Positions 16,901-40,900 are shown, counted from the stretch's first letter. The stretch is 64,000 nt of DNA from an uncultured bacterium (GCA_964482725.1 CAYZYT010000002.1:5591-69590); one strand, 5' to 3'. The notes: a model not told the origin generated them from the letters alone. Program-made: numbers and translations.

Positions 16901-19900
16901 AGCTGGCAGTCGGCGGACCGGAAGACCAGTTACACCTTTTCCCAAGCGTGGAGCTGGCAGCAGGTGACGATGGCGGAGACGCTTCCGGCGAATGCCGTGA
17001 CCAAGACGGAGAACGGGAAGAAATACCTTTGGAGCCCGAAGTGGAGTTTTTCGACGCAGGTCCGGATCGCGAAGAATGTCATTCCCGCGATCGTTCCAGG
17101 ATTAACGACCGCAGAACAAACGGCGCTGACGAGCGCCTTAAACGAATCCGATCCGAACGGCCTTATGGTCTACACCCAGAGTACGAGCGGGAACGATATC
17201 AGCTACAGCTGGCAGTCGGGAGATAAGAAGGCGAGCTATACGTTCACACAGGCATGGAGCTGGCAGCAGGTGACAACGGCGGAGACCCTCCCGGCGAATG
17301 CCGTGACCAAGACGGAGAACGGAAAAAAATATCTTTGGAGTCCGAAGTGGAGTTTTGCCGCACAGATCCGGGTAAGTTACGCGGCGATCTATGCCCGGTC
17401 TCAAGCGGTTGCCGTGCGCGCACCGATGACGCAGGCCGAACGGAATGCGCTGGATGCGGCGGTGGCATTAGGTCAGACGGATCCCTCATTGGTCTTTACC
17501 ATGACATTGGGCGGCACGGACGTGAGTTACGGCTGGCAGGATGCTGGGAAAGTTCACAATTATACGCTGAGTGGAACGGGCATTCGCGAAAAACAGATCG
17601 ACGGAACTTATAGCGACCGGGTGAAATCATCTTTCTCAGATCAGGTTCGTGCGAGTTGGGCGGTGATGGATGCGGCCCGGGACGGTCTGAACGGAAAATT
17701 AAGCGCATCGCAATGGGCGGCCTTGAACACGGCGCTCGGGGTGACGGATCCCGGGAATGCACTGATCAGCTATACGGTGACCCAGAGCGGGGAAGATATG
17801 AATTATGGCTGGACCTCCTTGGACCGGTCAATCACCTATGCCCTCAGCTTCGCTAAAGTGATCTACACGAACGGGACAAGCGATTATGACCCGAGTTTCA
17901 CGGCTCAGAGTTATGTCAGTCATGCCGTCGTGAGTCAATATCAGAACGGTGTTCCTTCCGGGCAGCAAGAGGATCTTACGGCGGCGCTGGCGCATGCCAC
18001 GACGCGTGGTTTTGTGTCCCTCAGCATGACAGGCGACGATTCCGTTTTCACGTGGGAATCCTCCGACAAAAAATCGAATTTTACGCTATCGTCCATCAAA
18101 ACTCTTTATTCGGGAACGACCCCGGTGGAATATAAACAGAGTTTCTCGGTCCAGGAATATGTTAGCAAGGTCGTGGTGGCGCAGTGGCTTGCGAGTGTTC
18201 CCGCGAATGAGCAAATTGCTTTCGAGACAGCTCTCAAGAACGCATCCCCGAACGCGACTTTCTTTACGGGGGCCAAATCTGGAACGGATTATTCATACAA
18301 TTGGCAATCGGCGGACCGGGGTACTTCCTATACTGTGACCCGGAACCTGATAAGCCTCCGGTCGAATACCGTTCAGCCTCCGGTTTATACCCAGGGGATC
18401 GCAACCCGCTTCTCCTATTCCGCCCGTATCAATCCCGCTTCCGCACAATTGACCGTGGTGAACGGAGTGACGTACCTGAACGGAACGGTCGTGGTGATCA
18501 CGAGTGATCAGAAGAATACGCTTCAGCGGCTTTTGAACAACACTCAGGTTCGTGTTGCCGAAATTGTGAGCGGAACCCAAGTGACTTATGATGTCTCGCT
18601 TTCGGAAGCGTCTGCGACGACCTATTCTCTGACGATGAACGGGGCGGCGGTGGAGCCAAAATGGGATTTCTCTTCCAAAACGCGCGTGAAGGCGGCCGAT
18701 ATCGCGGCGCTTATCACCGCGAACGGAAATGCGTTATTGAATACCATGGAAACCAGGGCCGACGGAACGGGGATGCGAGATCAGTTCGAAGATGATTTTC
18801 TGACACCCGTGCAGAACGGCGGGGTCCTGATGGATGACCACGGAGACGTAGAATTCTATCGTTCGGAGATGGGGGTGAGCGCGGCGGTTTCAGTGACGAG
18901 CTATTCCTGGCAGGCGAATGACGTGAGCTTTACTCTTTCGCTCGACGCGTTCATGCCGTCCGGAACCGGAGTGAGCGCTGCGACAAAAACAGTTGCGACT
19001 TACAGCCGTCAGGCCCAAGTCACCCGGGATGTGATCGGAAGTATCATTGGAAATCTTGTGATCGATTCGGTCCAAAAGGCCGCGCTGACGAACGCGGCAA
19101 GAACGGGTGCTTTTGACAAAACGGATGATCTTACGGTGTTCAGCTGGAGCGTGAGCGGGACCAATGACAGCTTTTCCTGGCAATCGGAAAACGGTACGGT
19201 GTCCCACTCTCTTTCGCTCGATAAAAATTTCCCAGCCGTGGGAGTCGGCGGGGTGGCCTCGACAAAAGTGATCGCGAATTATTCCGTCATGACGACCGTA
19301 AAACGCTCGGAGATCCAGGCGCTTATCGCGAAGGTTTTGTCTACGGACGGAGACACACGAGAAAAAGATGCGCTGCAAGCGGCGCTTAATGCGGCTCTTT
19401 TGACCACGAGTTTTTCCAAGACCGTGAGCGGCTTGAGTGAAAGCTACAGCTGGAGTTCTCCCGACGGCAATACGACGCACAGAGTCAGTCTGGATAATTA
19501 TGTGCCCTCCGGCACTCAGCCGGGGACCTATACGTCTGTCGCGAGTTACAACGTCCAGCAGAGGATCAGTCTGGAAAAGGTGAAGGAGCTTCTGAACAAC
19601 GGCCAGATCAAGGACTCGAAACAGCTTGCGATGCTCGTGACGGCGCTTGCTTCAAACAACGGGGATCTTCCCTATACCAGTTTCACGATGAGCAGTTCTG
19701 TCGGCCAGCAGAGTTACTCGTGGTCCTCGCTTGACGGGAATACGAATCATTCCGTTTCGTTCGAGACCGACCCGGACAGCACGACCGAACCGAAAGCACT
19801 GCGCGCGAGTTACAGCCAATCGGTCCGCGTTACGAAGGAAACGGTCCAGGCACAGCTAGCCACTATCTATGAAGCGGACCAACGGGCGCTTTTGAGTGCG

Positions 19901-22900
19901 GCGCTGGCCGCTGCGGATCCGGCGATGACGTTCTTTAAGCAACTGATCGGGAGCAGTGAACGGGCCACACCGAAGGTGTCGTATTCGTTCTCCTCAGCGG
20001 ACGGGAATGTCTCGCACCAGATCGGTTTTGATGCTGCAGATTCGACCCGCGGCAGTTACACGAAACAGGAGCGGGTGAGCCGGGAGCAGATCCTGAGCGA
20101 GATGGCGGCCGAAAACGCTTTTACGACGACAGATACCGTTGCTCTTGTCGCGGAAAAAAGGACGTTTCTCGAGAAATTGCAAGCCTATGCCGCGAGTTTC
20201 TTTTATAAAGCCATTTCGGGGATCGATGTTTCGTATACCTGGAGTGTTGCGGCCGCGACGGGGATCGGGCTTGGTATCTTGAACATTCTCTCTACGGCGA
20301 TGAACGGCGGCTACACATGGACCGTTCAGAATACCGTTTCGCGGAATGTCTTGGGAGCTAATTATTTCGGGATCAATGGTATCGATGCTTTTAACGGACA
20401 AGATGTCACGCATGTGGTGACCTACCGCTCGACGCTTCTGGGCGGAACTCTCGATTCAGAAAGTTACTCCATCATTTCTAAGAACGGCCTAGAAACACGC
20501 ACGGTGAATCGTGATGCGGTGACCGCCCCCTGGATCCGCGGCATACAGACCCAGCAACGGTCCACCGCTCAGAATCCCGTGACTTATGAAGGCAAGACCG
20601 GCGACTGGATCATCACCTCGAATTATCTTGGCACCGCATTCGCCGCAGTGCCCGGAAAAACGGAATACTCGTTGCAGCTTCTTGAAAAAATCCAGGTTTT
20701 GGATCCGGTGACCCAAGCGCCGGTCGGCTATCGGAAAACCGGGGTGACTTATATGATCAACTCGGGGACAGACGACACGTTTGATCCGACTAAATCCGAT
20801 TACAAAATGATGAAACAAATTCAGCTGCTGAAGCCGGGCTCCGCAGAAAACAAGACCGAACCGTTCCAGGGCAAGATCGGTGTCTGGACGCGGCTCATCA
20901 CCGAGTTGAACGCCGGATTCACGGAAGTCGCCGGACTGGCAGACTACAGTTTGCAGTTCGATACCCGTGAAGGGAATGACAATATTACGTATAGCATTTC
21001 CGGATTTGACAGCGCAGCTTTTACGACCGGGGACCTTGAGATGTCCACGCAAACCCAGACCTGGGGTAAGTTCGGGGGCGACGCGCAGGCCAATCCTCCG
21101 AAAGAAGGCCAGGAAGGGAAGTGGAGCAATACGGTCAGTGGCCTTGGCAAGAACTTCGGGGTGATCGGCGGGACGGAATACAGCCGGAGTCTTGTGAAGA
21201 TCGGTGCGGACGGATTAAAGACCGGGAAGACCTACATCATCTCCGGTTATTCGGATGCCGGTTTCAAGGCAACGGATCCAGCGTTGAAATATACGATCCA
21301 GGAAAAAGAAGCGATCGAAACGACGGTCACGATCATTGATCACCCGGTCAATGGGTACTGGATGCGGACTTCGAGCAATCTCGAAGCCGGTTTTACCGAT
21401 GTTTCAAAACGTGGGGACTACAACCGGCAGTTGGTCGATCCCGTTGAAAAAGATGTCACCTATGTCATTTCGGGATACGACGCGACTTTTGATCCCGCCG
21501 TGCAAGGCCTCAGGATCGAATACTCCAAGCAGGAAAAAGAACACAACCAAACCTACGGGACGGCAACAACGCCGCCCCTCAAAGGGAACGGCATCAAGAT
21601 CTCGAGCAAGTTGACCAGCACCTTCGCCGATGACTCGGGCGAATCCGAATACAGTCGCCAGCTTGTGGGCCGCGATCCCCTCACGGGAGTGCGGACCGGC
21701 ATTACTTATGTGATCTCGGGTTATAACAAGGATTTCACCGCCGCCCCCTCAGGAAAGCGTCTTACTTATTCCATGAGCGAAAAAGAATCGGCCTCGACAT
21801 GCTATGGGACCGAAGCCTGCGGTCAGTGGACGAAGATTTCAAGCAACCTCAAGAGTGATTTCGGGGTCCAAACTTCCACGAAATACAGCCGCCAGTTAAG
21901 CGAAAAAGATACGACGTATACGATTTCCGGGTATGACAAGAATTTCAGTAATGCGACTTCCGGTCTAGAATATTCCAAGCAGGTCACGGAATACGGCAAG
22001 ACCTATTTCGGTGTCCCTGGGAAATGGACGAAGGTCTATAGCCGCTTGGATTCCGATTTCACGGAGGGAACAGAAGCTCAATACGCATTGCAGTTTGAAG
22101 ATAAGGACGGACATTACGGCGGGGATGCCTCCAAGGGGATCCCGGACAAAGAGGGGGGCTGGATCAAGAGCTACAGCAATCTTACGAGTAATTTCACGGA
22201 ACAGGAATCGAGTAAGTACAGCCTCCAGCTGTCCGAGAACTCCGTGGAGATCACGGTCGGTGTGCCGAACACAACCACGGTGGACGGAGTGGAGGTGACC
22301 ACGGTCGTTCCGACGATCTTGAGCGGAGATGCCACCTTTGTGATCGGCGGTTTTGACAGCAGCTTCAACAGTGGCTGCGGCACGTCCTGCCCGGTCCTGG
22401 AGTATTCAAAGTCCGTCAAAACTTATGGCACCACCAATACCTTCGGTGAGGGAGACTGGACCTACAGCTACAGCGAACTGAGTTCGGCTTTTCAGATTGA
22501 GGCCACGACCAAGTACAGCGCGCAGCTCGAGGAAGGACGCCAGACTTACGGCGGACAGGAAGGGGATTGGAATCAGATCTATAGCAATCTGGCATCGAAT
22601 TTCACGGCGACCACGGCTAGCAAGTACAGTCGCCAAATGACGCGGGCGGATACCACCTTCGTGATCTCGGGTTATAACAGTTCCTTTGCCTCCGCCCAGA
22701 ACGCCGTGGTGGGTCTCGAATATGCCAAGCAGATCCAGACCTATAACAAGACCTTTCTCGGCAAGAACGGGAACTGGGTCAACATGATCAGCAAGCTCTC
22801 AAATACTTTTGCGGAACAGCCCGGAACGAGTGAGTATATGAAGCAGCTGTCGGAGCCGGAATTCACCTACACGATCGCCGGGTTCGAGAATAATACGTTC

Positions 22901-25900
22901 TCAATGACCGATCCCAATGTCACGCTTTCGGTCTCCGAAGAGCAATCCGGTTTTGCCGATCTTGATACCGGGATCCTCCCCGCATCTTTGACCGGCCGGA
23001 AAGCGACGGCGATCTACGGCGTGGATAATGTTGCGAACGCCTTTGCGGATTTCAAAAGCCATGTGATCTCGTACAGCGAACAGTTGGATGTCTCGGAAGG
23101 GAACGACGGGAGCCTGCTCCGTAGCGCAAGTTATGTGGTCAATGAGGATCATACGATCGACCATGCCGTCAGCACCGGACTGATCGGTGCTTCGACGAAC
23201 CGGAAACTTTCGGAAACCTTGACCGAGATCACCGGCTATTCCGATCTCACCTTTACCGTTCCGGAGAGCATTTCCTGGCAAGATAAAAAAGATGCGAAGA
23301 CGACGGAGGTGACGACTTTTGACATAGCGACTTATAATTTTTCGGCATCCGATCTCACGACCAATGCCTCGAAGGCGATCGGATGGATGCTTTCGATGGA
23401 TCTGACCAAGAGCGTGACCCGAACCCTGACGTTCAAGGACTCGACCCGCACCACGATCACGGATATCCAGGATACCCATTATGCGGTCAAGACCGGTCGC
23501 GGCCGGTCGGAAGACTACGCGATTGGATACGACTCGTCGGTTTTCGGAACATCCGGTTACCCCGAGATCGCCGCGGGAAAACTCAGTGCCAAGACTTATA
23601 CCGAGTACGTTTATGGCGCGACGGGCGTACTTTTGGGGCAACGTGTTTATGACCTCACGCTGGCGGCGGGAACCGGTTCCCAGGCAGGGTATCAGTCCAC
23701 CGGGGCTCAGATCCTGACCGGCCAAGCCGCCGGAAATGCCATGACCTACAATGTGGATTTCGGTCCCTCGACTCAGGATTGGTATCTCTCGGGATCGGTC
23801 GACGCGGGTTTTCTCTGGATTCCCGTGACCAGTACGGAAACATTCAGCGGAAGCGCGCTTCCGTCCGGCTGGCAAGGTTCCGGGACTTCCGTTTCGAGCG
23901 GGGATGCCGTCATGACCGGGACCGGAGCGAACTACAACACCCAGATGCTCTCCAGCACCGTGCCAGTGGATCACCTGACGGGTCTCTCTGTGGATTTTCA
24001 GGATCCCGCAAACACGCTTGCGCCGGTTACGATCTCGCAAGTGAACGGATCGGCCACCATTTCGCCGACCTCTGGATGGACGACGAACGGAACTGCAACC
24101 TATAACAATTCGCCGGGCATGGCTTATTACTCCATTAATTTTGGGACCGGAGAGGAGGGGGTGCAACTGGCGTTGAATGTGCAGAATCACATGAATGGGA
24201 CTTTTAACCCTAAACCCGGCAGCAACTACAACATTATCACTCAGGTTTGTACTGGAACGGTTTGCTCCGCAACTTCCACGGATTGGGTCACTATCGGGAC
24301 GATGAATATTTCCGCCTCGAACACCGCGCAGACCGGCACCTTGAACTTGGCCGCGGGACTCTACAGCGGGACCCAAAAAGTCCGTTTCAATTGGACCAAT
24401 GACGAGTATTCAAACACCACGCTTCTGAAATGGGACAACAACCTTCAGATCAACAGTGTCAGCGTCCTGGATGCGACGCCATCCACGTTCCACACCCTCG
24501 CAATCGAAAATGGATTGACCGGGACCTCTTACCAGAGATTCGGATTGGTGGCATTTACAGACGGTGCCATGAATTATTTCAGGGTCCAGACCTGCACCGG
24601 AACGAATGCGTGCACCTGGATGAAAGACGGCAGTCAACAAGATATCAAGATCATGTATGTCCCAGCAAAAACGTATACGCTGGATTATGGTTTTTCGGGA
24701 GGGCAGATCCAGCTTTACCTTCATGAGAAGGGCACGGCCAAACCGGCGACCGCGAGTGCTTCGATCTCGGCGACAGGATGGTCGCAAGCCGCGTTTCATT
24801 CCTGGATCTACCGGGGTACGGCGAATGTCCAGGAAGTTCGCACCACCCAGGAGACGCTGATCGATCGAAGTTTCAAGATCGAGGTTCAGAATAATGGGCA
24901 GTGGATCGATATGGGAGTCCAGACCGTGGCGGCCGCGGCCACTTCCACTGCTTTTTCGATCGCAAACACAACCCAGCTTTCCGGAACTCACTCGGTCCGA
25001 ATCACCCCGTTGACCGGATCCACCAGTGTCGCGATGAGCGGCCTTACGGTCCTGACGAAGCCTCTGGATAATGCTTATGTGAGACCCTCGGCGACTTCAC
25101 TCGTATCGGAAAATTTTTATACCGGAGCGAAGTTCCGCGAGATCCTGGCGCGCACCGAGTCGGTTTCTTTCGCGGCCGGAGTCAAGATCATTGACAGCAC
25201 TTCCACGTATTTTTATATCAAACCGGGGGTCGGTGTCGCAGCGGCAACGATCGTCCCGGCTTCCGAGGTGACCAATAAAGCTTGGAAGCTTGCTTATGCG
25301 GAAGCCCGGGATCCCAAAGCCGGGACCACCGGAACCAATGCGAACGTCAACGGCCTTCTTCTCTCAAGGACTTTTTACCGCGCGGACGGACAAACGAGCG
25401 ATTATGTCGTGACCTACGACGCCACAGGCGCGGCCGCGACCCGGGACCAATATATTTACCGGACACCCCTTCTGGGCGATCTGCAAAGCCCCAAAGCCCG
25501 GGATCTGATCTCGATCATTCAGTATCAGATCAATGGGTCGGCCAACGTGAATGTTGGCGATCTCATTACCAAGGTTCAGCTCACGAACCTGTATACCGAC
25601 GCGAATATTCCGGCGGCTTTCGCCGCAACTTCACCCGAGGTTCTTTTAATGAAGGAGCTCGGAAAAGATACGACGTTCCTCTGGCTCCAGAGTAATGTGA
25701 CGGATCTGCCGGCCAATCAGCCAGTCGTGCTTGTCTCCTCGCCGGTGAGTTATCCTGTGACCGGAACGCCGAATCAGACAACCCAGACCCAGGCTTTTGA
25801 TTCTGCCGACGTTTTGCAGCAGTCAACTACGGAAACCTTTGGTGGGATTTTACCGGCGGGATGGCAGACGGGCGGCATCACGACGGTTTCCAACGGAAAC

Positions 25901-28900
25901 ATCTCTCTGGTAGGGACCGGGACGGGCTACGACACGAATGTTTCCGGACCGGTCGTGACGAATCCGTCCTCCATCGCGATCGATTTCCAGGACAGCACCG
26001 CCTACACCGGACTTGTGTCGCAGCAATATTATCTGGATTTTGCAAACCCAGGCCAAGGAGCGGAGGTGATCCTCGCTCCCTTGGCAACAGGCGGGGAATT
26101 TGCGATCGACGGGCAGTTGACGGATAGCGGCTCGACCGGATTCTGGACCGCGCCTGCAGCTCAAAACGAAACGTTGACCCAGCTGGGAACGATCGATTTG
26201 GGGCAGTCCCAGAGGATTAACCAGATCACGGTCCAGTTGTGGGACGGGGAAAGTGCCCGGGTTTACTACAATTACAAAGTCGAGGTTTCAACGAATAAGC
26301 TGATATGGACCAGCGTTTTTGACGGAACCGGAAGTGGAGTGAATTATTCGGGGGCACAAACCATCAACTTTGTGGCTCGCGATGTTCGATACATCCGGGT
26401 CTCGTCAAGCGGCAACAGTACGAACGCCGTTGCGCATATTGAAGAAGTGGATGCGAGATTGATCCCGTATATCCCCGGAAGCGACCAATACATTGTGGTG
26501 AGTACGGTCAGCGGTTCGGCTTATGATACAACGACCAATACGAATACCGCGGATACCTATCGCTGGATGGTGGATTCCACGACCGGCGCAATCTACAATA
26601 ATTATGATTCCATAGACCGTCCTTCCGCAGGGGCCGCCTATTACCAGATGAATTTTGGAGCCGGCGCCGGAGGCCAGGTTCTGGAGCTTAATGTTCAGAA
26701 CCATGTCTACAATAGCTATCTGCCGGTCACGAACAGTGTCTATAACGTTCGCGTCGAGGTCTGCACCGGCACGACTTGCTCCGCCACATCCACCGATTGG
26801 GCCAGTCTCGGAACGATGGATATCGCCGCGTCATCCTCGGGACAGACCGGGCGTCTTGCGATCCCGGCGGGATTTGGCGGCACGCACAAAGTGAGGATCT
26901 TCTGGCTGAACGATCTTGCGCAGAATAGCCAGGACAACAATATTCAGATCAATAGTGTTCGCATTCTGGATCGAGCGCCGTCATCGCTCCAGCACATTGC
27001 GATCGAAGACGTCAGTCAGGGTGCTTCGGGTACGGCCGGGTACCGACGCTTTGGGCTTGTCGCGTTCCGCGATGAGGTTACGGGCTCGAATTATTACAAA
27101 GTCCAGGTGATCGAGGGAGGAACCCTTCGCTGGCTTCAGGACGATCATAAGCTCGACGATCTCCGGATCGACTACACTCCCACGAAGAGCTATACCGCGG
27201 ATTTCCGCTTCGAGAACGGCTCGATCAAGCTCTACTTCTTTGAAAAGGGAGCGAACCAGCCGGGGAATCCCCGGGCATCGATTTCGGCTGCCGGATGGCT
27301 GCAGGCGAACGCTCATTCATGGATCTATCGCGGCACGGCCAATATCCAGGAAGTCCGTTCCACTCAGACCGTGCTTTCCCAAAACTGGCAGTTCGCGGGC
27401 GCCTCGGTCAATAACGGCGTCATTACGCTAACGGGAACAGGAAGCAGTTATGGCAGCAATGTCTCCGGTCCGGCGGTTACGAACCCGACCTCCATGGCGG
27501 TCGATTTCCAGAACGGTACTCAATATACGGGAGCCGTCGCGCCTCCATATTACGTGGACTACGCGAGCGCCGCCCAGGGCGCTACTGTGATCAATGATCT
27601 CCAGACGGAAAGATTTTTCACCCCGGGACTTCCGGCGGGATGGACCACGGGCGGTGGGAACATCACTTATAATTTAGACGATCTTGTGATGACCGGGACC
27701 GGGAGCAATTGGAACACCAATGTTGCTTCCTCTTTGACTCCGGTGACCGAAGGGACGACTTATTCGATCGATTTTGCGACCCAGAATGCAAATACCCAGC
27801 TTTATCTGGCCGTGGACAACGGGGATGATTCTTCGTCGAGTTATAAACGTTTCGGGATTGTGCAGTTCTTCGATACCACAACCCAGAAGGCTTATTTCAA
27901 GATCCAGATCATTACCAACGGAACCAGTTCTTCAACCTTCGCAAAAGATGTGAACGGTAATGAGATTCGGATCAATTTCGAAGCAGCTCCAACGCATACG
28001 GTTCAGTTTAAATTTACCAATGGTCAGATCGCGCTTTCGTTTGACGGGCAGTCGGTTTACACGCTTTCCAATAACCTTGGAATGACAGCCTCGCGTTTTC
28101 ATAGCTACATCTGGAGTGGAAACGCCCGGCTGCAGGAAGTCCGTACGCTGACGACGGCGTGGGGTGCGAATTTTGCGATCGACGGAACTCAAACGGACAG
28201 CGGTTCGACAGGATTCTGGACGGTCAATACCGGAAATTCAATCACTCCCAGTACGGTGGCAAGCCCCACGAACGCGGAGCGTTTGGCGGAAGTGGGTGTA
28301 ATCGATATGGGGCAGCTGCGCACGATCAACCAGATCATGCTCCAACTCTGGGATGGGACGTCGTCCACGCGGGATAGCCGCCAATATTACAATTACATGG
28401 TCCAGGTTTCCACGGACAATGTTAACTGGAACACGATTTTTGACGGTACCGGAAGCGGCCAGAATTATCAAGGAGCGCAAACCCTGGATTTCACCGCGCA
28501 GGACGTGCGCTATATCAAAGTTTTTTCCAGCGGGAACACCACGAACAGCGGGGCCCATATTGAAGAAGTGACGGCGCAATTGGTACCCCCGAGTCCCGCG
28601 CTTCAACCGATAGACGGGGTGAATGGTTCTGATGTGATCGCCTCCATGACCCATACGTCTGGCACTCACCCCTGGGTCGTGGATTCAAGGAGCAACTCCA
28701 TTTCGAATCTATGGGATTCGTATGACAGCGCCGGAGCCGTTTACTATCAAATGAATTTCGGCTCTGCCGGGGACAATCGAGTTCTGGAATTGGATGTTCA
28801 GAACACTCCCTATAACAATTATGACCCGGTCGCGCTCAGTTCTTACAATGTGGTGGCCCAGGTCTGTCTGAAAGCAAGCTGCGCAACGGACGCGGATTGG

Positions 28901-31900
28901 ATCGGCCTAGGGGCTATGGACATCGCCGCATCCCGATTCCAGCAGACCGGTCGGTTGAGTATTTCTTCGGCGGTCACGGGTTCTCACGTGATGCGGCTTA
29001 TCTGGACCAACGATCAGGCCGCGAGTAGTCAGGACAACAACATTCAGATCAATAGTATTCGTACCGCAAAGGTGTTATCCGTTTCTCCAACGCCGGAGCC
29101 GCTGGTGATTTCACAAGCAACGGGGGCTTCCTATATTGCGCCGACCGATGTCAGTTCAAGTAACGTGTGGTATCGATGGTCCGTAGACGCTGCGACCCAA
29201 AGTATCTACACGTACGGAGATACCGCTGAGATGGCGCAGCAGCCTGGGGCTGCGTATTATTCCATGGATTTCGGGAATACGCTCGGAAGTCGGGATCTGG
29301 AACTGAACGTTCAGAATTATGCCTACAACGGACAGCCGCCAGTGGCAAACAGCGTTTTCAGCGTGCAGTCCCAGGTTTGCATGAAGACTGCTTGTACTAC
29401 GGATGCCGATTGGATGAACCTCGGTGTTATGAACATCGCGGCTTCCACGACGGGTCAGACCGGACGTTTGGCGGTTGAAGGGATCATGGGGGTCCACGCG
29501 GTCCGTTTTCTGTGGCTGAATAATATCGGCCAGTCCGGCCAGGACAATAACATTCAGATCAACAGTGTTCGTGTTCTTGACCGCGCGCCGTCTTCGTTCC
29601 AGCATATTGCGATCGAGGATACGAGCCAGGGCACGGACGGACCGGGATACCGTCGCTTTGGCCTCGTCGCTTTCCGTGATGCGATGACCGGGGTGAATTA
29701 TTATAAAGTCCAGGTCTATGACGGGGAAGGCGGTCGTTATATGACGGATGGGGCGGGGAATGAATTAAAGATCACGTACGATCCGACCAAGACCTACACC
29801 GCGGATTTCCGGTTCGCGGGGGATCAGATCCAGTTGGTGTTTGGCGTCAAAGATGCTGTCGGGACCGTGGTTGCGACGACCTCCTCCGTCGGATGGAAAC
29901 AGGCGAATATTCACTCCTGGATCTATCGCGGAACCGCGACTGTTTCGGAAGCCCGGACAGGGACCCAGACCATCCAGTATTCGCGAGGCGCGGCCTATCT
30001 TGCCGGGAGAGAATACAATTACTACAAAGGCGGCAAACTCGAGCACATCGATGTGTTTTCGATAGAGGCCGGCCGCTATGAGTTGACGCAGAAACGGTTC
30101 TTCTACAACGAGCCCGCGGATATCCTGAAATACGGCGAAGGTTCAGTCCGGATGCTCGAGTATTACGAAAGCGCCGGGAGCGATGCCCAGAACGTGCTCT
30201 TGCCGCGGACGCTGGCAAGCCGGACCTACTATAATTACAACACTTCGGCCGGGTATACGGGCCAAAACCGGTTGACGGATACGAAGACGTATGCGGTTCT
30301 AGGCGGCAGCACATTGACGCCGGGGAAAGATACGTTCCTCAAACAACAGGAACTCTATAACACCAGCGAGCTCTACACTCCGGAGCTTTGTGCGGCCTAT
30401 CAAAGTTGCTACGGCGCTGCGCAGTATGGCCACAAATCCGTACTAGTTTATAATTACGAAGGACTTCCGCAGGGGGGCACGAGCTCTTATACCACAAGCG
30501 GGACTTCTGAGGTGCTCTCGCAGGTGAACGGAAATGCGGCGCTCTCGTCGTTGGACGACGGCAGCATTGTGATGAATGGGACGGGCATGGGTTATTCAAG
30601 TAATGTCGCTTCTGAGTCGACGTCCCTATCCGGCCTGGAGTCGATTTCTGCGGATTTTCAACCGAAACAATTAATTTCCGGGCCTGAGCGTATTTCTGTC
30701 ACGAACGGTTCTTCGATCCTGCCGCCAACGAACACGACCCAGCGCGACGATGGGTATGAGGGATGGTTCACATCTGGAACAAGCGGTTACGCGTACCGGC
30801 CAGGTTTTGTTTACTACTCCATGGATTTCGGGAATGGGGAAGAAGATAGACAGCTCGAACTCTCCGTGCAAAACATTGCCTTTGAAAACCTGCCGCCGGT
30901 GGCGAACAGCTTTTTCAATGTGACCGCTCAGGTTTGTTTGAAAACAAGCTGTACGGTAGATGCCGATTGGACGAATCTCGGCACTATGGATATTAGCGCG
31001 TCGATTTCTGAACAGGTCGGACGGCTGACCGTTCCTTCGGGGATCGAGGGAAACCGCGCGGTTCGTTTTTATTGGGCCAACAATCTTTGGACAGATTCTG
31101 AGAATAACAACCTGCAGATCAACAGCATTCGCGTTCTGGATGCGACGCCTTCAACGCTCCTGCATATGTCTGCCGAAAGCGGAATCGCCGGGACGGCCAG
31201 CTATCGCCGGTTCGGACTGGTTGCTTATGAGGGAAGCGCGGGCAATTATTTTAAGGTTGAGACCATAACCGGTACCACATGGGGGGGGTGGCTCAAGGAC
31301 GGGGCGGGGAATGATATCAAACTCACGTATGACCCGGCAAAGACCTACTCGCTTGATTTCGTGTTTTCCGGCGGAAACATCCAGCTCTACTTGCATGAGA
31401 AAGGAACAGCACGTCCGGCTACCGCTAGCGCTTCAGTCTCATCGTCCGGCTGGTCGCAGGCGGCGATCCATTCCTGGATTTGGCGCGGGCAGGTCATAAT
31501 CCAATCCGTTACAAAAAAAGTCTCAGGCGTCGCAGCAGCGGCGGCTGTTCCATGGACAGGGCTTACCCAAGTAGCAGCAAGCGGAGCGAGTGTTTATCGG
31601 CTTAGCGAGGGCGCCATTGATTACGTGATGGACTTTGGTGATACGACTCAAGCCGGTCTGCAACTTCTGATCAATGCACAGAATTATTCCAATAACGGTC
31701 TTCCTCCCGTTCCGGGTTCGACATTTAATGTCAAGGTGGAGGTCTGTGAATCTGGAACGAGCTGTGGGGCTTCGGGTTGGACTTCGCTAGGAGTGATGGA
31801 CATCAATGCCTCGGCGGAAGCTCAAACCGGATCGCTTTCATTTTCTGGAAATTACACCGGAAAACATGCCGTTCGTGTTACTTGGCTCAATGATCTCTCC

Positions 31901-34900
31901 GGAACGGGTTCTGATAATAATTTCCAAATCAACGGTCTGACGCTGCAGACCGGATATGCCTCCGACATCTTCAGCTATGCGGTCCATCATTACGATGCGA
32001 TCACGCATGCCATGGCGAGTGACAGCAATTACGAGAGGCATTATGTGCCGCCCGCGACGGTTTCTACGCCGGTCGTGGTGGCCGGATCCTCGGTTGTGAC
32101 CGGAACGGGCGCCGGCTGGTACACAACAAGAGAAGGGGCGGTCCATGCGTTTAACGACAGCACTCAGGGTTCTGGACCGGTGCTTTACAACATGGATTTC
32201 GGGACCGGAGGCAGTTCCTGGAATCTTGCGATAAGCGCGCAAAATTATTCTAACATGCCGGTCTCGGGTTCCACATACCAGATCGCGGTGTCGATATGCC
32301 TGGAAGCCGCCTGCACCCAGGAAAGTCAGTGGACCAATCTTGGTACGCTGGGTATCGATGCAACCCCAGCGGCGGTCACGGGAGACCTCAGTATTGATCG
32401 GGCGATTTCCGCGGGGAGCCACACAGTTCGCCTGCAATGGCTGAACAACATGATGCCCGATTCGACCCACGATAATAATCTTCAGATCAATTCGCTCCAG
32501 CTCTTCCATAAACAAGAGGCGCAAGTCCCGGGGACCCCGCAGGATGCAAGGGTATCGGAAACTTACTACCGCGCGGACGGGGCTATTTCCAAGATCGACG
32601 CCTTTACCTGGGGCACCAACACGATCAAGAATACGACGACCTTCGTTTTTATGGAGTCCACTCAGGAAGGCGACATGCCGCCGGTCCTGCTTTACACGGT
32701 CAACACGAACGGGAGTTATTCGATCTACAACACCGCATTCGAGGCCGGAGTTATTCTCCCGGGAACCTTGACCCCTCTTTCCTGGGGCGGCTCCGATCCT
32801 GCGTCTCCGGCAGTCCTTTCGTCCAAACAATGCGGACCCAGGGTCGTGCAGGAAATGACTCGCGTTGGTGACCAGGTCCAGCGGACGAACTACACGTACC
32901 GTCAGGATGGGACGCTCCAAATGACCACGGCCCGGCAGCTGGATTCCGCCGGTTTGCATATTACTTCAGTGTCATCGTTCGACGCGACGGGCAAACGGAT
33001 CCAGACGGTGGATTCGTACGCCTGGATGTCAGGGCGGAATGGGGCGCCGTACAATCCGGTGAGTGCCCGCGAAACTTATTTTTATCATGACGGTGCCTAC
33101 GCAAGCTATATCGAGCATACCGAACAGCGCGCGGTGAGCGCGAACGGCACGGTGGCGAGCGAGATCGCTTCGAGTACCGATTACGGCAATTCCATAAGCG
33201 GGAGATCTTCCAAGCTCCGGACGACTTATTTTGCCACGAACCGTCAGGATGTTTACACGTACAACGCGGCGGGACAGCTTGCTTCCTCGACCCAATACCG
33301 GACCTCTTCCGGCCAGGCACAATCGGTCAGTTATTACGATCCCGAGACTAACCGTCTGCTTCGCTCCTATTCGATCGCCGGGAACGCAACGGAAGTTTAC
33401 ACCTATCGGGCCGACGGCACCTTGAAAGAATCCCGGTCCTACGAAGGGGATTGCGGTCCGCTCTGGACGCCGGTCGTGGGGCATCTTGATTCGCTCAAGG
33501 TTTACGACCGGTTCGGAAAAATGACGGATTCTTACTCGTATTCCGATTACGCGGCTGATATGCATGAAGTTTATACGTATTGTGTTCAGGCCTCCTGCAC
33601 GGACGATCAGATCGGAAAATTGAAAACCTCCCTGGTTTATCGCGTCGTCGACGGGGTTCTGACCCAGGAAAAGACCTACAATCTCGAGACCGGGGTCCTG
33701 ATGACCTCTGTAGACAAAGTCAACAACCTGACGACGACATTTGAATACAACGGAAATCGTGAGCTGATTCGAAGCAGCGTCTTCACTCTCGAGGGGGGGA
33801 AGAAGTCCACCACCACTTATGATCCGGCCAATTACAGCCGTCAGACCCGCACGGAAAGTTACGCGACGGACGGAACGACGGTGGTCGGTTGGACGGAGAA
33901 TTGGTATGACGCAACCGGAGCTTTAATGAAGTCCGTTTCCCAGGGCGGTTGGACCCGGACGGAAACGACTTTTTCCGGTTCCCGTGGGCATGAGCGCGCC
34001 ACCCTGGCAAATGTTTATACCAGCATTTATAGCTGGGCCGCCGGGCAGGTTTGGGACACGGATTGGGGTGATGCGGGAGGCATGCGCAATGTGGTGGCCG
34101 GGTTTGTCGCAACAGGGTCGCTCATTTATGCGTGCGGCGGCACTGGGGAAGGAAGTGCCTGTGAGCTTCACACGTTCAATTACACGTTCGATTACGGGGC
34201 GGGCGGCGAGAATGGGGTGACCCAGACCGGAACTGAATGGCGTTTCGATTCGAATTCTTCGGACAGTGTTACGACGCGGAACGGCTACGCGATCCGGAAC
34301 GGAACGCTCAACACCTATACCTACAAAACGGTTCAGGATGTCAACGGCCGCACGGTTTCCACAGAATCCCGGAACAGCAGCGGGGTAGTCACGGACAGGA
34401 CCTATGGCTACCAATACGACCAAAATGGCAACGCGCTCCGGTACACCAGCTACAGCCGGAGTACCGATGGGAAAACCCATACGTACACGGTGAACCAAAC
34501 CTATAACGCGGTGGGTCAACTTGTGCAAACCGCCCAGTACGAGGGCAGTAAGCTTGTTTCCATAACGACCTACACGTATCGTGCCAGCGGAGTTTTAGCG
34601 CAATCCGTCAATATTTCCTATGATGACCAAGGACGTCAGGATACGAGGAATACGACGACGTACGATTCCTTGGGACGCGCCGCGAGCACCAACACTTATT
34701 TCTTTGCCGGAGGGGCGACTCAGAACAGCATTGATTCTGCCCGCCGGGCGATCGCCCGGGCCCGGGCTGCGCAGCGTGCGGCTTCCCAGCTAGCGTCCGC
34801 TTCTCAGAACCTCCAAAAAGCTGTCCAACTCCAGAAGGAAGCCCAGAGAAACGCGGCGCAATCCAGAGCACTCCTCGCCCAAGCGAAAGTTCTTATTGCC

Positions 34901-37900
34901 AGGGCTCAAGCCCAGATCGCCTCCGCGATAGCCACGTTGAAACGTCTCGGGGGCAGCTACGCCACTATGGCTAATTTGGTTGAATTGGCGGGGAAAAGCA
35001 TGCTGGCATTTTCGAATGGGGGTACTTATGACATCGAATGCGCCAGCATCCTGGCAGGCCTTGTGTCTCGCTATATGCAGGGTGACAGAAGCGTTGCGCT
35101 TTTGCAGATTTCCGCCGACAGCTATGCGATCGTCGGCGCCGATTCGGTGACCACAAATCCTCTCACCGGAGAGACGGTCATCACCTATTCCGGGTTCTCC
35201 ACGAATGGAAAGAATAATGATGCCCACTGGATGAATATGACGGATACGATGCGAGCCGACGGTCAGATGTCACGCCGTGTGATCTCGAACCAAAGCAATG
35301 CCGAAGACACGATCACCATGGATTATGTCTACAACGCCGCCGGTCAGCTCCTCTATTACAACACACGTGTGGATACTCCGGATACATGGTTCATGTCAGG
35401 TTACCATTCGTCCAGTCGAACCTACGCCGACTCTTCCGCGGGCCAAGCGGCCATGGAGGCTGATTTTGCCGCGGCCGCCGCCACAGCGGGTATTTCGGTC
35501 CACGACTACATTGCGCAACACACCACGGACCGGACTTGGACTATCGATGAAGATCAGGCAGGAATTAATGGCTGGGGCCGCACTACGATTGTGGTGGTCT
35601 GTGTTGTTGTTGGTTTCTTGATCGGCGGTCCTTATGGCGCTATCGCTGGATTGATCGTTGGAATTGTTCTCTGTGTTGCCATCAACAATGCGGATAATTG
35701 GTTTGGAACTTCGGAGCAGAAAATGGCCAGTTACTGCATGGCGGCCGTGTTGGCGGTAGCTTCCTGGTATTGTCCGGCGCTGTGGTTGCTGTGGGCCGCG
35801 GTGTCAGCGGTCTGGACCTATGGCACGACAGGGGACTTGAAAGCGGCCGTAACCGCCTTCGCGATCGCCGTTGTCATGCATTACATTAATCTCGCTATAC
35901 CCGTCGAGGGACTAGGGACTGCTGCGGGAATAGCTGCAAGCACAATTCCTATTGTTCAGGCCATTGTCAGTTTTGTGGTTCAAGTGGCGATTTTGACAGT
36001 TATTAATATGGTGGTTTATGGGACTGCGGATTATCTTACGCAGTCGGGGCGTAACAAGAGAAGTTGGACCGAGTGCATGTCGGACACATCCAAATATGCC
36101 CTTATCATGGCGGTTATTGCGGTTGGAATGAGGTTCCTCGGGAGATGGTGGAGAGGAGAAAGCCCGTCGGCAAGCTTACGCCCTCCAGTAGCACCCAAAC
36201 CACCCCCTTTCAGCATTGTAGGGGCCTCGGCAATATTTTTATCTAATATTATGACGAGCATTGTTATGGGCTCGGAAGGGACGCAAGACACTTTAAAAGG
36301 ATGGGGCCTTGGCGAGGCCGAGGATACTGACAATCCCAATGATATTAATATCGCGCGTCGTGTTTTTTCAGGCGTTTTAAACGGAATGATCAGCGGGTTG
36401 GTTGGGCAGTTTGCGCCGGGTAACAGCATGCTCTCTTTCCAATTCTTGATGAGTGCCGCGATGGGAGGATTGAACGCTCTTTTTAGCGCAAGTATTGCCA
36501 ATGCCTTGATGCCGAGCGTGACTGCGGAAGGGATGTATTCAGAGGCTGTGACAGACCTGATGGGGAAATTCACGAGCGGTGTTTTTGATATGTTCCAAGA
36601 GAGCTTTTTGCAGGGGCGGCCCTTGACCGCGGCTCAAAAGGAACAGGCTTATGATACGGCCAAGGCGAGTGGCGCCTTTGACAAACAGGACGATCTAAAC
36701 GGACTGACGCTCGACCAATGGATAAACGGAAAGGATATCGGAGGTTGGCATGCGCAATTTGCTTGGAATCCGGATAAACAATGCGTCGCCACAACCCTTT
36801 TGCTTGGAGGGCGAGCGATCACCTTGCAGGGGAATCAGCAGCTCAATACTTTTCTGGGAATACTCGGGGCTGATCCGTCAAAAGTCACACCGGTGATGTT
36901 TATTACAGCGCTCGCAAAAGCGCTTTTTAATGCCGACGTAAAAAACCTCGGCTCCAAAAGCACGGCGGAACGGGCCCAAGAGGATTCCGCCAAAGAGTCG
37001 ATTAAAGTCGTGGTGGATGGCGTCACCCTTTCAATCGATGTCCTCCGATCTTCGGAGATGGTAACGCCTGAAGTGGCGGAAAGGGCCCTACGGACTTTTA
37101 TTTCAAAATATGGCAATCTGAAAACCCTATTGACGTCGGGCAATACGAACGCCCTGGGAGATCTTTTGGGAGCGATGCAGACGTCTATGAAGTCCGGGGA
37201 ACTTCGGGGCATCCTTTCCGTAACATTCGAAAACGTCAATCTTGGCAAGTTGGGGCTCGCGAGTTCCTTGACCGTCACGGGCGATTCGGTTTCCGCGACG
37301 ATCGAGTCCGCAGGGTTGGCCTGGACGATCACCGGCAAAGACTTCGCGGATATGCTTTCGGTCGGCGATCTTCTAAAATCTGCGTTGGATAAATCCGGAT
37401 TGGGGGCACTCCTGCTTGCCGGGGAAAGGGATTTTGGCAAGTTGACGGATGCCTTGATCTCGTTTGGCGATCTCCTTCAGCAGGGGCTTCTGGACGGACA
37501 AAGCATTAAGGCGACTTTTATCATGAAGTACACGGCAGAAAACGGAAAAGTGCTCGACATCACCGTCACATTCACGTGGACCAAAGATGCGGTGGCCTAC
37601 AACGCCACTATCAAATTGGCGGACGGTTCTTCCGTCACCATCGAGGCGACGGTCCGCAACACCAAAGAAGCGATCCACGATATCAAGACCGTCGCCAACC
37701 TTGCCGCTCAATACGATTCGCTTTATTTTACCCAAGCCAATATCGGAAAAGTGATCGAGTTTATGACGAGGGTATTCGACTTGCTGGGTCTGGGGGAGGG
37801 CGGTCTTTATGCGACTCAGATGAAGCTCACATTCAAGGACATCGAAGGGAATCTTTTTTCATTCACCTTGACCAAAACCAAAGGCGGAACGGCCGCAAAC

Positions 37901-40900
37901 ACCAACGTGCTTTTTGAGGTTCAGCTCGTCAATGGCATCAAGCTGAAAGGTCAGGGGACGGGGATCGAGGCGACGGCTAACGGGGTTTTTGCGCTGGCGT
38001 CCATTGTCAAGGCTCCCAAATATGCCACGCTGAACACCATGATCGCGGACAATCCCCAAGCGTGGAGTTTGCTTACGGAATGTATCACGGAGATCATCGG
38101 CGCTGTCCGGAGCGGCAAGATCACGCTGATCGATTTCTCGCTCGAATTGAAGTGGGGAACGTTTGTTTTTGATGTGGCGAAGCAGACCGTTCAATATATG
38201 AATGTCCTGGCCCAGACGCAGGACAAGACGCGCTTTGCGCTGTCAGGCAAATTTGGATTCGATAAGGTGAGTGACGGGCTCAATCAAACGCAGCAATTAA
38301 GGGGGTTGGCCGCGGGTTCCGCGACCTTGGGAGATTTTATCGGGGCCGCCTACAAGCAATTGACGGTGACGGCTCAAAAACTGGGCTCGCTTGATGAGGT
38401 GCAGACGGTGTCCCAGCAGGTGGCGATGGGAGAACTGGGGATCACGGCTTTTGAAAAGAGCGGGGCGGCGATCGGAGAATTTTTCCTTTCCGCGATCAAT
38501 GTCAATGGCCAGATTTTCAACGGCTTGCGAGCCGTGATCTCGTTCGCGGGCAAGGATGGCACGACTCTGAAATGGTCGACCCCGACTTTTATTTCCGAGA
38601 GAAAGGGTGACGGAAGCGCTGCAGGGACCGCGATGTATCAGAAAATTTCCGGGGTGGTTGAAACCCTCCGGACGCGGGCGGCGGGTATTTCGCTGGATCC
38701 GATTGCGGCAGGAGGCGAATTGCGCGGATTTCTCGCGGAGCTGCAGAAAATCTATACGGCCCCCGGAGCGATCATGGCCGGTCTTTCGATCCTGCAGGGT
38801 TCGCTGATGCGCATGGAGTTCCTGGTGGGACCCAAACAGATGGCTTTAGGCGGGCTTGTTTTTGACGGGGTCAATTTCCGTTTTAGCGGAACATTGAACC
38901 TGGATCCCAAAGGGGTGAACCGTCTGGAAGTGTCGGGCAAAGCTGGTTCTCTGGAGTCGGTGATCGGTAATTTCGCGAATATGGACACGACCCTCCGATG
39001 GATCTCTAAGTACACCGATGTGGTGAACAAACTTGCGGTGGGAGGATCCAAGCTGACGGGGGTGGACGGGTTGAGATTCCTGGCCGACATTGAGGCGGAG
39101 TTGACCAAGCAAGGGATCCAAAACACTTTGCAGGGCACGGCGATCATGGGCCTGTTCCAGCAGGTGATCTTTGGGGGTTCCCCGGCGGCTGAGTTTTTGA
39201 CCATCAATTCGAAATTGAAGGATGGGAGTATAGTCCAGACCTTCAGTCTGAACGGTAATGCCATTCTAATGGACCCCGAACATAATCGGATTATGGTGAA
39301 TGGAATTACCACGTCGATGACACGGGACAGTCTTAAAACGAGCTCGGGTCAACAGAGCGGGAAAGTCTCCCTGATAAGGACCGAGCAGGGGGCGCTCTAT
39401 CTTTCGACGGATCTTGGGAGCAGCGGTAACAGTGCGCAGTACGAGGCCAGCGCGGCGCTGGCGTTGGCGCAATTTTATGCGGAAACAGGGCTTGCGCTTT
39501 CGGGGTTTCAATTCTCAGGAACGATCGGCGGGGTGCTTCAGGCCGGACGGCGTACTTACACCGAAATCGTTAATTTTCAACTGGCCGGGGGAGTGTTCAC
39601 GCGGGACGCCAAATCCCCGGTCGTGGTGAATTATACGTATACCAATGCGTACCGAAGCTTCACGGTCTCTACGGCCTTTGAGGCGATGGGGAAAGCGGAC
39701 GAGTACACGCAAAATAGAGCCTCGGCGCTTCTGGATGCTGCCGGAGGGGCTGCCACGCCTGCAGAATTTTCGGCGGCGCTTCTGCCGGGAGGCGGCTTAC
39801 AGGGATTCTTCGGGGCTTCCGCGATGAATGCTATTTTGACAGGCGGTGCGTTTACGACTGGAGAGAAGAGCTGGAGTTTTTCGCTCATTGCCGGAACACT
39901 GGATCTAAAAACAGGTATGGGTATTTATTCGGGTGTCACGCGGGATGGAAATAAATTTTTAATGGGAGTGCCCGAGTGGCAGAAAGCCGGCGGGTTCGGG
40001 ACATTGGACAAGGCTTCCGGGACATTCAGGGATACGCTCGGCAAAGAACTTCCCGGATTCCGCGTCAATCGCATGACTCCCGACCAGATCCCCGTCGATT
40101 CCAAAACAAGTCTGCCAGTAGGGGTGACCTACCCTCTGCAGATCAAGGATAACGCGACTCTCGGCCTCGCTACACGAACTGCGCTCGACGGATTCTATCG
40201 CAGCGAATACGGGTTTTCATTCAGTCTCCTTGGTACCAACGGCGCCATCATTCTTCTCGACTCAAAATTCAATGCGTTGTGGGTCACCCGGGAAAATGAT
40301 CTTTCGAAAATCAATGACCGGGGGCTGACCGGAGTCGGGGTGAATCTCGGCAAAGTTGCTGTGAATGAGAATGGGACTTGGTATGCCGACACGGTGAAGG
40401 AAAAGTATGGGAATTCTCAAGTCGTGTCCGGGACCCTCCGAACTAATGAGGGACGTACAATTTCGATCAACTCCGCAGCACAGGTCTCGGGTTATGTTTT
40501 TGGCGGAAATCTTTCCAATTTGAGCATTGTTTCTCAAACGGCCGCCGCCGATTTGGCGCAGGCGTCCGGTCTGGTTTATCAACGCGGGATGACCGTCTTT
40601 TTCAGCGGGGGTGCCGCTGTGGGATGGGGCGACCTCCGGTTCGATGGAGGCAGGCCGAATGTCCAGAATGCGGTGATCGACGGAAGAGTTTACATCTATA
40701 GCAGTGCGGCGAATGCGTGCGTGGGTGGCGATTCGCGGAAGGTGGTCAACACTTGGAGCGCGGACCAGCAAGGAAACATCCCCGTATCCATGGAAGGAAA
40801 TAAGGTCGCGGATTATGCAAAGCGCGTGACGGGATATGATTTCAAGGACTCGGGATATGCCGGGTTGACGTTGGAAGAGCAAAAGACAGGGGGCGATTTT

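Follow-up and report, generated by a model that had tools for sequence, protein, structure and literature searches.

A sevenfold-repeated, cysteine-paired domain of a giant bacterial protein is probably a divergent CBM60/CBM6-like carbohydrate-binding module

Introduction

What is the domain of about 120 residues, marked by two closely spaced cysteines, that recurs seven times among discoidin and other β-rich modules in a giant protein of an uncultured bacterium? The protein is encoded in the 64,000-nucleotide stretch of DNA analysed here (GCA_964482725.1, CAYZYT010000002.1:5591-69590; hereafter the window, to which all nucleotide coordinates refer). A preliminary description, made from the sequence alone, had assigned the domain to no known family and taken it for a new glycan- or surface-binding module with an extracellular disulfide. 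We find instead that the domain, which we call X, very probably belongs to the CBM60/CBM6-like carbohydrate-binding modules (CBMs) as a divergent branch, with a galactose-binding-domain-like fold and a lineage-specific loop that carries the cysteines.

Nearly all of this protein of more than 20,000 amino acids (aa) is unrecognised by Pfam, and the 2,800-aa region in which X occurs, a putative lectin-like array in which seven CBM60-like modules stand with two discoidin domains and with a β module, here called ZY, in five copies, gives a testable handle on the function of that part. The analysis extends the CBM60/CBM6-like group by a rare branch (~54 cluster representatives in 1.84 billion) and defines a lineage-specific loop, apparently Cys-stapled, next to the presumed binding face. 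It brings no new fold or principle, and CBM-like and discoidin repeats in the giant proteins of Omnitrophota have already been reported in general terms.

Domain X is an old sevenfold repeat

A single plus-strand open reading frame (ORF; 161..60121 as listed, 19,986 aa) fills nearly the whole window. Within it X forms an all-β domain of ~117 aa, whose copies lie across aa ~7985-10787 of the giant protein. A hidden Markov model (HMM) built from these copies returned exactly seven strong matches when the giant protein was searched (independent E-values, i-E, of about 1e-54 to 1e-67; aa 7967-8111, 8803-8945, 9507-9642, 9675-9815, 10195-10335, 10474-10604 and 10653-10789), and nothing in the giant protein beyond the seven copies scored better than an i-E of ~5e-4. 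The copies are as follows:

24113..24484, plus strand: X copy 1, aa 7985-8108; Cys 8030/8035 (C-x4-C); HMM i-E 4e-57
26627..26983, plus strand: X copy 2, aa 8823-8941; Cys 8868/8873; HMM i-E 1e-66; the AlphaFold2 target
28730..29083, plus strand: X copy 3, aa 9524-9641; Cys 9569/9574; HMM i-E 1.7e-61
29243..29593, plus strand: X copy 4, aa 9695-9811; Cys 9740/9745; HMM i-E 4e-66; WLNN instead of WLND
30800..31153, plus strand: X copy 5, aa 10214-10331; Cys 10259/10264; HMM i-E 6.3e-65; WANN...NNN
31607..31963, plus strand: X copy 6, aa 10483-10601; Cys 10529/10535 (C-x5-C); HMM i-E 1e-53
32171..32521, plus strand: X copy 7, aa 10671-10787; Cys 10713/10718; HMM i-E 6.9e-56

Aligned with MAFFT, the seven copies share 25 invariant columns and the consensus GAxYYxMDFG..LELNVQN..PV..S.YNV..QVC..T.C.T..DW..LGTMDI.AS...QTGRL....G.H.VR..WLND....DNN.QINS.RVLD, with which the consensus string of the preliminary description agrees. 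Pairwise identities of 36-61% indicate that the duplications are old. The earlier picture of a real, sevenfold and long-diverged repeat thus stands; its length of ~120 aa is corrected to ~117 aa for the folded core.

A further stretch at 24872-25060 (aa ~8238-8300; FKIEVQNNGQWIDMGVQT...LSGTHSVRITPL...GLTVL) resembles the middle strands of X and gives a local match to the X HMM at an i-E of 5e-4. It lacks the first X strands and the N-D...DNN motif described below, and may be a degenerate eighth copy.

X is related to CBM60 and CBM_6

We sought the relatives of X first within Pfam, where three copies match CBM60 (PF16841) with the C-terminal half of the domain: copy 2 with E 6.5e-5 (23.8 bits), copy 1 with E 4.1e-4 (21.2 bits) and copy 6 with E 0.048 (14.6 bits), all against a gathering threshold of 28.2 bits. 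These matches share one register, in which domain residues ~77-135 align with profile positions ~21-79, and a 1000-aa piece of the protein holding copies 5-7 matches CBM60 with E 1.9e-5 (25.5 bits). NCBIfam contains no match for X, and a word-indexed search of 5.8e9 protein clusters with the X alignment returned no relative. An exhaustive HMMER search with the X profile over 1.84e9 cluster representatives yielded 54 proteins at E<=1e-3, of which 10 reach E<=1e-10, numbers that mark X as rare.

These relatives fall into three groups. Three proteins (P0001, P0002 and P0007) are fragments of giant ORFs, the latter two also bearing F5/8 type C (discoidin; F5/8C) domains. The second group is a single secreted family with signal peptides and one to three copies of a domain of the form W.EY.VDFG.GG...TAKN...G.HTVRFTWTNDAW..G.YDANI.V..VSF, partnered by CHB_HEX_C_1, GH123, GDSL esterase and galactose-oxidase-like domains. 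This domain (in short, W.EY.VDFG...TWTNDAW..G.YDANI.V) is the closest family outside Omnitrophota giants (library-wide E 1e-11 to 1e-23) and resembles X in length, in its N-terminal YxxDFG strand and in its C-terminal motif, but it has no Cys loop, shows 'DG' at that turn and occurs in proteins of ordinary size. The third group comprises lipoprotein-like and rhizobial proteins in which Pfam itself calls the matching units CBM60.

Among the top relatives, seven (P0003-P0006 and P0008-P0010) exceed Pfam's curated cut-offs of CBM60 and of CBM_6 alike when whole-protein scores are added up across their two or three repeats, and P0011, P0029, P0035 and P0047 exceed that of CBM60; in P0011 the residues found by the X profile (library-wide E 2.9e-10) are the same as those scoring 42.7 bits against CBM60. 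When single domains of a 28-member family alignment, which includes the seven window copies, were scanned at E<=0.01, CBM60 was matched in 19 and CBM_6 in 11 (best 2.1e-8). Finally, profile-profile comparison with hhalign aligned the seven window copies to 19 CBM60-like domains of the third group, taken from unrelated proteins, at a probability of 98.1% and E 6.7e-14 over 112 columns, which cover almost the whole of X; 16 of these 19 domains match Pfam CBM60 at E<=0.01 (best 2.1e-15).

The profile-profile match, together with relatives that pass the CBM60 and CBM_6 cut-offs, means that X is not an unassignable new family. On this central point the preliminary description has to be revised: it had proposed that a clear profile match to an established CBM would make the domain a known one, and such a match is in essence what hhalign gives, alongside the one-register sub-threshold CBM60 matches. 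The HMM search that it had suggested did yield relatives, most of those tested passing the CBM60 threshold, the CBM_6 threshold or both.

X nevertheless differs from CBM60, described in Pfam as 'Ca-dependent carbohydrate-binding module xylan-binding'. The two are alike in size class, in being all-β sandwiches and in a C-terminal block, G.H.V...W.ND......D.N.Q/R.I/V..V, common to both. What sets X apart is an added N-terminal strand (AYYxMDFG), a Cys-bearing hairpin insertion of ~11 residues, Asn in place of a conserved Asp in some copies, sub-threshold Pfam scores, and a host that is a membrane-anchored giant protein of more than 20,000 aa rather than a xylanase. The prototype of CBM60 is the Cellvibrio japonicus / vCBM60 module (PDB 2XFD/2XHH), and CBM36 is a circular permutant of CBM60. 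As regards CBM6, CBM35 and CBM36, relatives of the P0003-P0010 type pass CBM_6 over the same domains whereas the window copies have no direct CBM_6 match, and the structural matches of X to CBM35 and CBM36 are weak (E>1e-2, TM-score 0.4-0.6).

The predicted structure is a galactose-binding-domain-like sandwich

AlphaFold2 models X copy 2, from an alignment of seven sequences, as an all-β domain of seven strands (predicted local distance difference test, pLDDT, 78.9; predicted template modelling score 0.73). The ~20 residues before AYYxMDFG are of low confidence, which sets the core at ~117 aa. Foldseek matches of the model to the PDB are weak (E>=4e-3) and fall on galactose-binding-domain-like sandwiches, the best including CBM36 (1w0n, TM-score 0.52/0.60), CBM35 (2w47/2w87), CBM70, Eph ligand-binding domains and the lambda gpJ tail tip; against BFVD the matches are to phage tail-fibre-type sandwiches at E>=1e-4. 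The structural comparison suggested by the preliminary description thus places CBM36- and CBM35-like sandwiches among the best matches, but at weak scores. The predicted fold class agrees with the CBM60-like assignment and is not independent proof of it.

A C-terminal Asn/Asp frame may hold a calcium ion

In the numbering of a 143-aa slice of X copy 2, the residues that are invariant or nearly so across the family are Y26, F30, G31, N45, G82, G105, H107, R110, W113, N115, D123 and N125. The X copies keep a hallmark block, G-x-H-x-V-R-x-x-W-x-N-[DN]...[DN]-N-N-x-Q-I-N, in which W113-x-N115-[DN]116 lies at the end of strand 6 and [DN]123-N-N125 just before strand 7. The N-D...D-x-N positions of this block are the sole invariant columns of the CBM60-like set, and the motif is intact in X copies 1, 2, 3 and 6. 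Nowhere do the seven copies vary more than in the 6-10 residues between N115-[DN]116 and [DN]123.

The family name and the structures of CBM60 and CBM36 point to this Asn/Asp motif as the presumed Ca2+ site. By analogy with those two families, the Asn/Asp frame of X probably holds a Ca2+ ion next to a sugar-binding site, and the variable loop that it brackets may shape ligand specificity, possibly together with the Cys-bearing hairpin. The CBM families in which Ca2+ takes part in ligand recognition are CBM60, CBM36, CBM35, CBM6 and CBM62 (PMC6852018), and the ligands of CBM60 are xylans, galactans and cellulose, bound in a cleft (PMC9107766).

The cysteine pair lies in a lineage-specific hairpin insertion

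Each copy of X has its Cys pair, as the preliminary description had noted, but four residues separate the partners in six copies (C-x4-C) and five in copy 6 (C-x5-C), instead of the C-x(3,4)-C given there. The protein is indeed Cys-poor, with 51 Cys in 19,986 aa (0.26%), 14 of which are the seven X pairs. In the X model strand 3 ends with the first Cys, and the second falls in the loop that leads to strand 4. The hhalign comparison sets the segment C-x4-C-x-T-x-x-D against a gap in ordinary CBM60-like domains, and in Cys-less relatives from Omnitrophota the hairpin is ~5 residues shorter ('EVET-----EYGEW'). The pair is therefore part of a lineage-specific hairpin insertion, which by alignment is ~11 residues long and lies in the β3-β4 hairpin relative to ordinary family members.

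The distribution of the pair is narrow. All seven window copies carry it, as do the three copies of the giant protein of Ca. Omnitrophota RA.bin90 (JAKLIQ010000007.1; P0001 is a fragment of that ORF); it is missing in Omnitrophica UBA2337 (five copies), in SRP300315_co1_21 (two), in the metagenome contig ERZ761609 NODE_8 (three) and in every relative outside Omnitrophota. Conservation of the pair among homologues, which the preliminary description had proposed as a check, is thus confined to the window and RA.bin90, with a shorter loop elsewhere. The pair is clearly not essential to the fold.

The C-x4/5-C pair most likely forms a local disulfide that staples the extra loop, and the extracellular disulfide proposed earlier is plausible in this local form. 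For a canonical CBM60, too, a homology model is reported to bring two Cys within disulfide distance (PMC9107766).

At least seven other close pairs, with 3-8 residues separating the partners, occur in the giant protein, at aa 2700/2707, 7214/7220, 7406/7410, 8145/8151, 10077/10083, 11141/11146 and 11325/11334. They account for many of the few Cys outside the X copies, all lie before the first transmembrane cluster (see below), and small disulfide loops formed in an oxidising compartment would fit them.

X shares a giant membrane protein with discoidin domains

The reading frame is larger than listed. No in-frame stop occurs 5′ of nt 161, frame 2 is already open at the window's first base, and translation of nt 2-160 carries on a ~100-aa N-terminal repeat (FYxSxxGxDxPxYQW...), so that the gene starts upstream and the protein exceeds 20,000 aa. 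The scan of the whole giant protein for strongly hydrophobic segments found ten, in two clusters of five (aa 11,804-12,038 and 15,382-15,768), and none before aa 11,804. The X region consequently lies inside a stretch of more than 11,800 aa free of transmembrane segments, ahead of the first membrane cluster. Pfam, run on 1000-aa pieces at E<=1e-3, recognises two F5/8C domains and a few other matches that are weak and probably spurious. Both F5/8C domains lie above the PF00754 cut-off of 28.2 bits, as the preliminary description had anticipated:

2..60121, plus strand: giant ORF, at least 19,986 aa, holding all X, F5/8C, Z and Y modules
35570-36274 and 46304-47464: hydrophobic clusters, five segments each
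26078..26464, plus strand: F5/8C domain 1, aa ~8640-8768; PF00754 E 7.7e-13, 49.1 bits (aa 8646-8763); PF22633 E 7.6e-11
28157..28585, plus strand: F5/8C domain 2, aa ~9333-9475; PF00754 E 4.2e-7, 30.6 bits (aa 9331-9470); PF22633 E 9.4e-8

The same company is kept elsewhere. We scanned four related loci with local HMMs for X, F5/8C and the Z and Y modules treated below. In all four the ORF is open over the entire fetched stretch (up to 20 kb), and X alternates with discoidin arrays. UBA2337 (L002, DDUN01000047.1) and ERZ761609 NODE_8 (L004) show a regular (F5/8C)2-3-X period; SRP300315_co1_21 (L003, CAZLTL010000005.1) runs as 13 F5/8C, X, 11 F5/8C ... X, with at least 24 F5/8C; and RA.bin90 (L001) as X, ZY, X, ZY, Y, three F5/8C, X. 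That X keeps company with discoidin domains in all four of these other giant ORFs speaks for a lectin-like role common to both.

X is most closely related to the copies in Ca. Omnitrophota RA.bin90 and Omnitrophica UBA2337, which suggests that the window, too, derives from Omnitrophota. The protein shares with giant proteins of the Omnitrophota type a very long single ORF and multiple transmembrane regions. Published Omnitrophota giants have many transmembrane regions and discoidin repeats, as well as CBM35-like repeats that lack Pfam annotation and were found only by structure prediction, and have been proposed to serve in adhesion and cell-wall degradation during predation (West-Roberts et al., bioRxiv 10.1101/2023.11.21.568195); a 2026 preprint counts arrays of ConA-like lectins among the scaffolds that repeats build in giants of this kind. 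Genes for type II secretion and carbohydrate import have been reported next to Omnitrophota giants. The window protein is like those of West-Roberts et al. in being giant and multi-transmembrane and in combining F5/8C domains with CBM-like β modules missed by Pfam. It differs in its unit: theirs is a ~200-aa β barrel flanked by dockerin-like helices, whereas X has ~117 aa, no helices and CBM60-like sequence.

The Omnitrophota giants are also reported to carry a divergent SecA-DEAD helicase. Downstream of the second hydrophobic cluster, a P-loop-like stretch (MGAGKTLVG) and an LMDEIH stretch, both seen by eye, recall this domain; Pfam does not call them, and no 1000-aa piece of the protein matches a SecA DEAD helicase domain at E<=1e-3.

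A putative glycan-adhesion array and its alternatives

Taken together, the data suggest for X a role in glycan adhesion outside the cytoplasm, probably assisted by Ca2+, as a module of CBM60/CBM6-like type within a lectin-like array, a reading to which we assign a probability of roughly 0.6. Each copy would fold independently as a β sandwich of ~117 residues, its C-terminal Asn/Asp block would form a Ca2+-holding loop beside the sugar-binding site, and the C-x4/5-C disulfide would staple the extra β3-β4 loop. Interleaved with discoidin and ZY-type β modules, the copies would make up a multivalent lectin-like array through which the cell, or the giant protein on its surface, could be fastened to glycans of another cell or of a polymer surface. 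The functional part of this proposal, multivalent and probably Ca2+-assisted glycan adhesion, stands at about even odds. The glycan- or surface-binding role suggested in the preliminary description is in this sense reasonable, given the CBM-like relatives.

Several observations weigh on the other side. No copy of X reaches the CBM60 threshold (best 23.8 against 28.2 bits) and four copies have no CBM60 match; CBM_6 (PF03422) is matched by no copy at E<=1; and PDB sequence searches with the seven-copy, 28-member family and CBM60-like-unit profiles retrieved no CBM structure. The AlphaFold2 model draws on only the seven aligned sequences, and the N-terminus of the giant protein, and with it any signal peptide, lies outside the window. 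In copies 4, 5 and 7 Asn takes the place of the first Asp in the putative Ca2+ motif, and copy 5 (WANN...NNN) lacks both Asp, so that Ca2+ binding may be weakened or lost in some copies, and the copies need not all be equivalent or active. This loss is the sole sequence-level support for the diversified specificity that the preliminary description had read into the divergence of the copies, and could equally mean decay.

A rival explanation that draws on these Asp losses holds that X is a CBM60-derived sandwich that no longer binds sugar and serves as a rigid spacer or scaffold that sets the length and shape of the giant protein. Giant surface proteins often use β-sandwich arrays as stalks, and the regular (F5/8C)2-3-X periods of the relatives look architectural. 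A pure spacer, however, would have no need of 25 invariant columns at 36-61% identity, among them Y, N, H, R, W, N, N, Q and N, nor would it explain why the polar motif is also kept in distant CAZyme-linked relatives, and we consider this explanation unlikely. We give about half as much credence to the idea that X binds protein rather than glycan, whether a prey surface protein or, in self-assembly, the giant protein itself, in the manner of cohesin or phage receptor-binding domains. The Foldseek top matches do include the lambda gpJ tail tip, Eph receptor ligand-binding domains and phage tail-fibre proteins, but at scores (E>=1e-4, TM-score ~0.4-0.5) that reflect a generic jelly-roll fold, whereas all kinship at the level of sequence is with CBMs, and relatives have CAZyme partners.

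Two further explanations concern the novelty of X and its cysteines, and both appear very improbable, the second marginally more so. That X is a truly new glycan- or surface-binding family, homologous to no established CBM, would accord with the failure of every window copy at the Pfam and NCBIfam thresholds, with the empty PDB and word-indexed searches and with the 54 relatives in 1.84e9; it is already largely refuted by the profile-profile match over nearly the whole domain, by relatives at library-wide E 1e-10 to 1e-25 that themselves pass the CBM60 and CBM_6 cut-offs, and by three independent sub-threshold CBM60 matches in one register. On the other explanation the C-x4-C pair would coordinate a metal or be redox-active instead of forming a structural disulfide. 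Cys pairs this close together can serve as metal ligands, and X has a nearly invariant His (G-x-H-x-V-R), but this His is equally conserved in relatives without the pair, each domain offers two Cys only, and the pair sits in an insertion absent from homologues. The other short-range pairs, at least seven in the transmembrane-free region, are moreover typical of oxidising compartments, and the disulfide distance in the canonical CBM60 model (PMC9107766) likewise favours the structural role.

Z and Y half-modules bracket the X and discoidin domains

The β-rich neighbours that the preliminary description labelled ConA-like or jelly-roll belong to the module ZY, one copy of which is contiguous. 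Non-iterated phmmer with this ~185-aa sequence detects four further Z (~60 aa) and four further Y (~125 aa) units in which Z lies apart from Y; we relied on this search because iterated jackhmmer drifted into X. The units are:

27602..28153, plus strand: contiguous ZY β module, aa 9148-9331; phmmer and HMM self-matches; the ConA-like/jelly-roll candidate of the preliminary description
23831..24016, plus strand: Z half-module upstream of X1, aa 7891-7952; Z HMM i-E 2.4e-31; phmmer with ZY i-E 1.2e-9
24491..24856, plus strand: Y half-module directly after X1, aa 8111-8232; Y HMM i-E 3.1e-62; phmmer with ZY i-E 1.1e-16
25823..26008, plus strand: Z half-module, aa 8555-8616; Y partner at 26990-27367, after F5/8C domain 1 and X2
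26990..27367, plus strand: Y half-module directly after X2, aa 8944-9069; HMM
27365..27529, plus strand: Z half-module, aa 9069-9123; next unpaired Y at 29600-29971, after ZY, F5/8C domain 2, X3 and X4
29600..29971, plus strand: Y half-module directly after X4, aa 9814-9937; HMM
30494..30670, plus strand: Z half-module upstream of X5, aa 10112-10170; phmmer and HMM
31160..31525, plus strand: Y half-module directly after X5, aa 10334-10455; HMM

The repeated modules are therefore real, but they match no Pfam or PDB family. Nothing in Pfam is significant for ZY (best DUF4923, E 0.027, and CBM_4_9, E 0.037), neither ZY nor Y matches NCBIfam, and ZY finds nothing in the PDB profile search or in the search of 5.8e9 proteins; the label ConA-like is accordingly unverified.

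Across 23831-31525 the modules run Z[X1]Y, Z[F5/8C X2]Y, Z[ZY F5/8C X3 X4]Y, Z[X5]Y, followed by free X6 and X7. The break between Z and Y falls at a short turn between '...YSIDF' and 'TQLYLAVDNG...', 7-8 residues long in all three contiguous copies, from the window and RA.bin90; in the RA.bin90 giant ZY is contiguous and X lies outside it. The balanced, parenthesis-like order of Z and Y suggests nested domain insertion, in which X and discoidin domains would sit in a hairpin of ZY, up to two levels deep. We hold this only tentatively and think it on balance doubtful, and plain shuffling of two small independent domains could produce the same order. The AlphaFold2 model of a Z-X-Y unit (aa 7893-8245; mean pLDDT 60.7) is too poor in its Z part (below 50) to judge the packing of Z on Y; the Y part has ten strands with block-mean pLDDT mostly 70-86, and all Foldseek matches have E>1e-3. 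If nested insertion did occur, it would have built, by repeated rounds, a compact and branched lectin 'bouquet' bearing a disulfide-stapled CBM60 variant, which might suit prey cell-wall glycan.

Other features of the window

Upstream of the X region, at ~13301-16360 (aa ~4381-5400), a double unit of 183 aa (549 nt; SGNDISYSWQD...SFSSQVRVSWGYLDSIRDANYLKMT...) is repeated in tandem at least six times. These units are 78-95% identical at the protein level, their duplications being far more recent than those of X, and their region is the GC skew maximum of the window. Tandem Repeats Finder reported no repeat at a score of at least 200, as the repeats are too diverged or exceed its period limit of 500 nt.

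Between X7 and the first transmembrane cluster, at ~32528-35560 (aa ~10,790-11,800), strings of the form YTYxxDGxL / TYDxxGR recur. We considered YD/RHS repeats for aa ~10,800-11,700 on the strength of this likeness, judged by eye, and set the assignment aside as unsupported when Pfam returned nothing there at E<=0.1.

Two further genes lie beyond the giant ORF, on the opposite strand:

61375-61821, minus strand: YqeY/GatB-like protein, Pfam PF09424 on record
61976-63949, minus strand: 657-aa protein with N-terminal membrane segments

The only identical copy of the YqeY protein lies on a Logan contig of 3.9 kb from SRR12261223, the one run that points to the sample behind the window. The 657-aa protein, by eye, seems to have a VWA-type domain followed by TPR repeats and a low-complexity tail of ~200 aa rich in K, Q, D and E, and is a candidate BatB-like protein.

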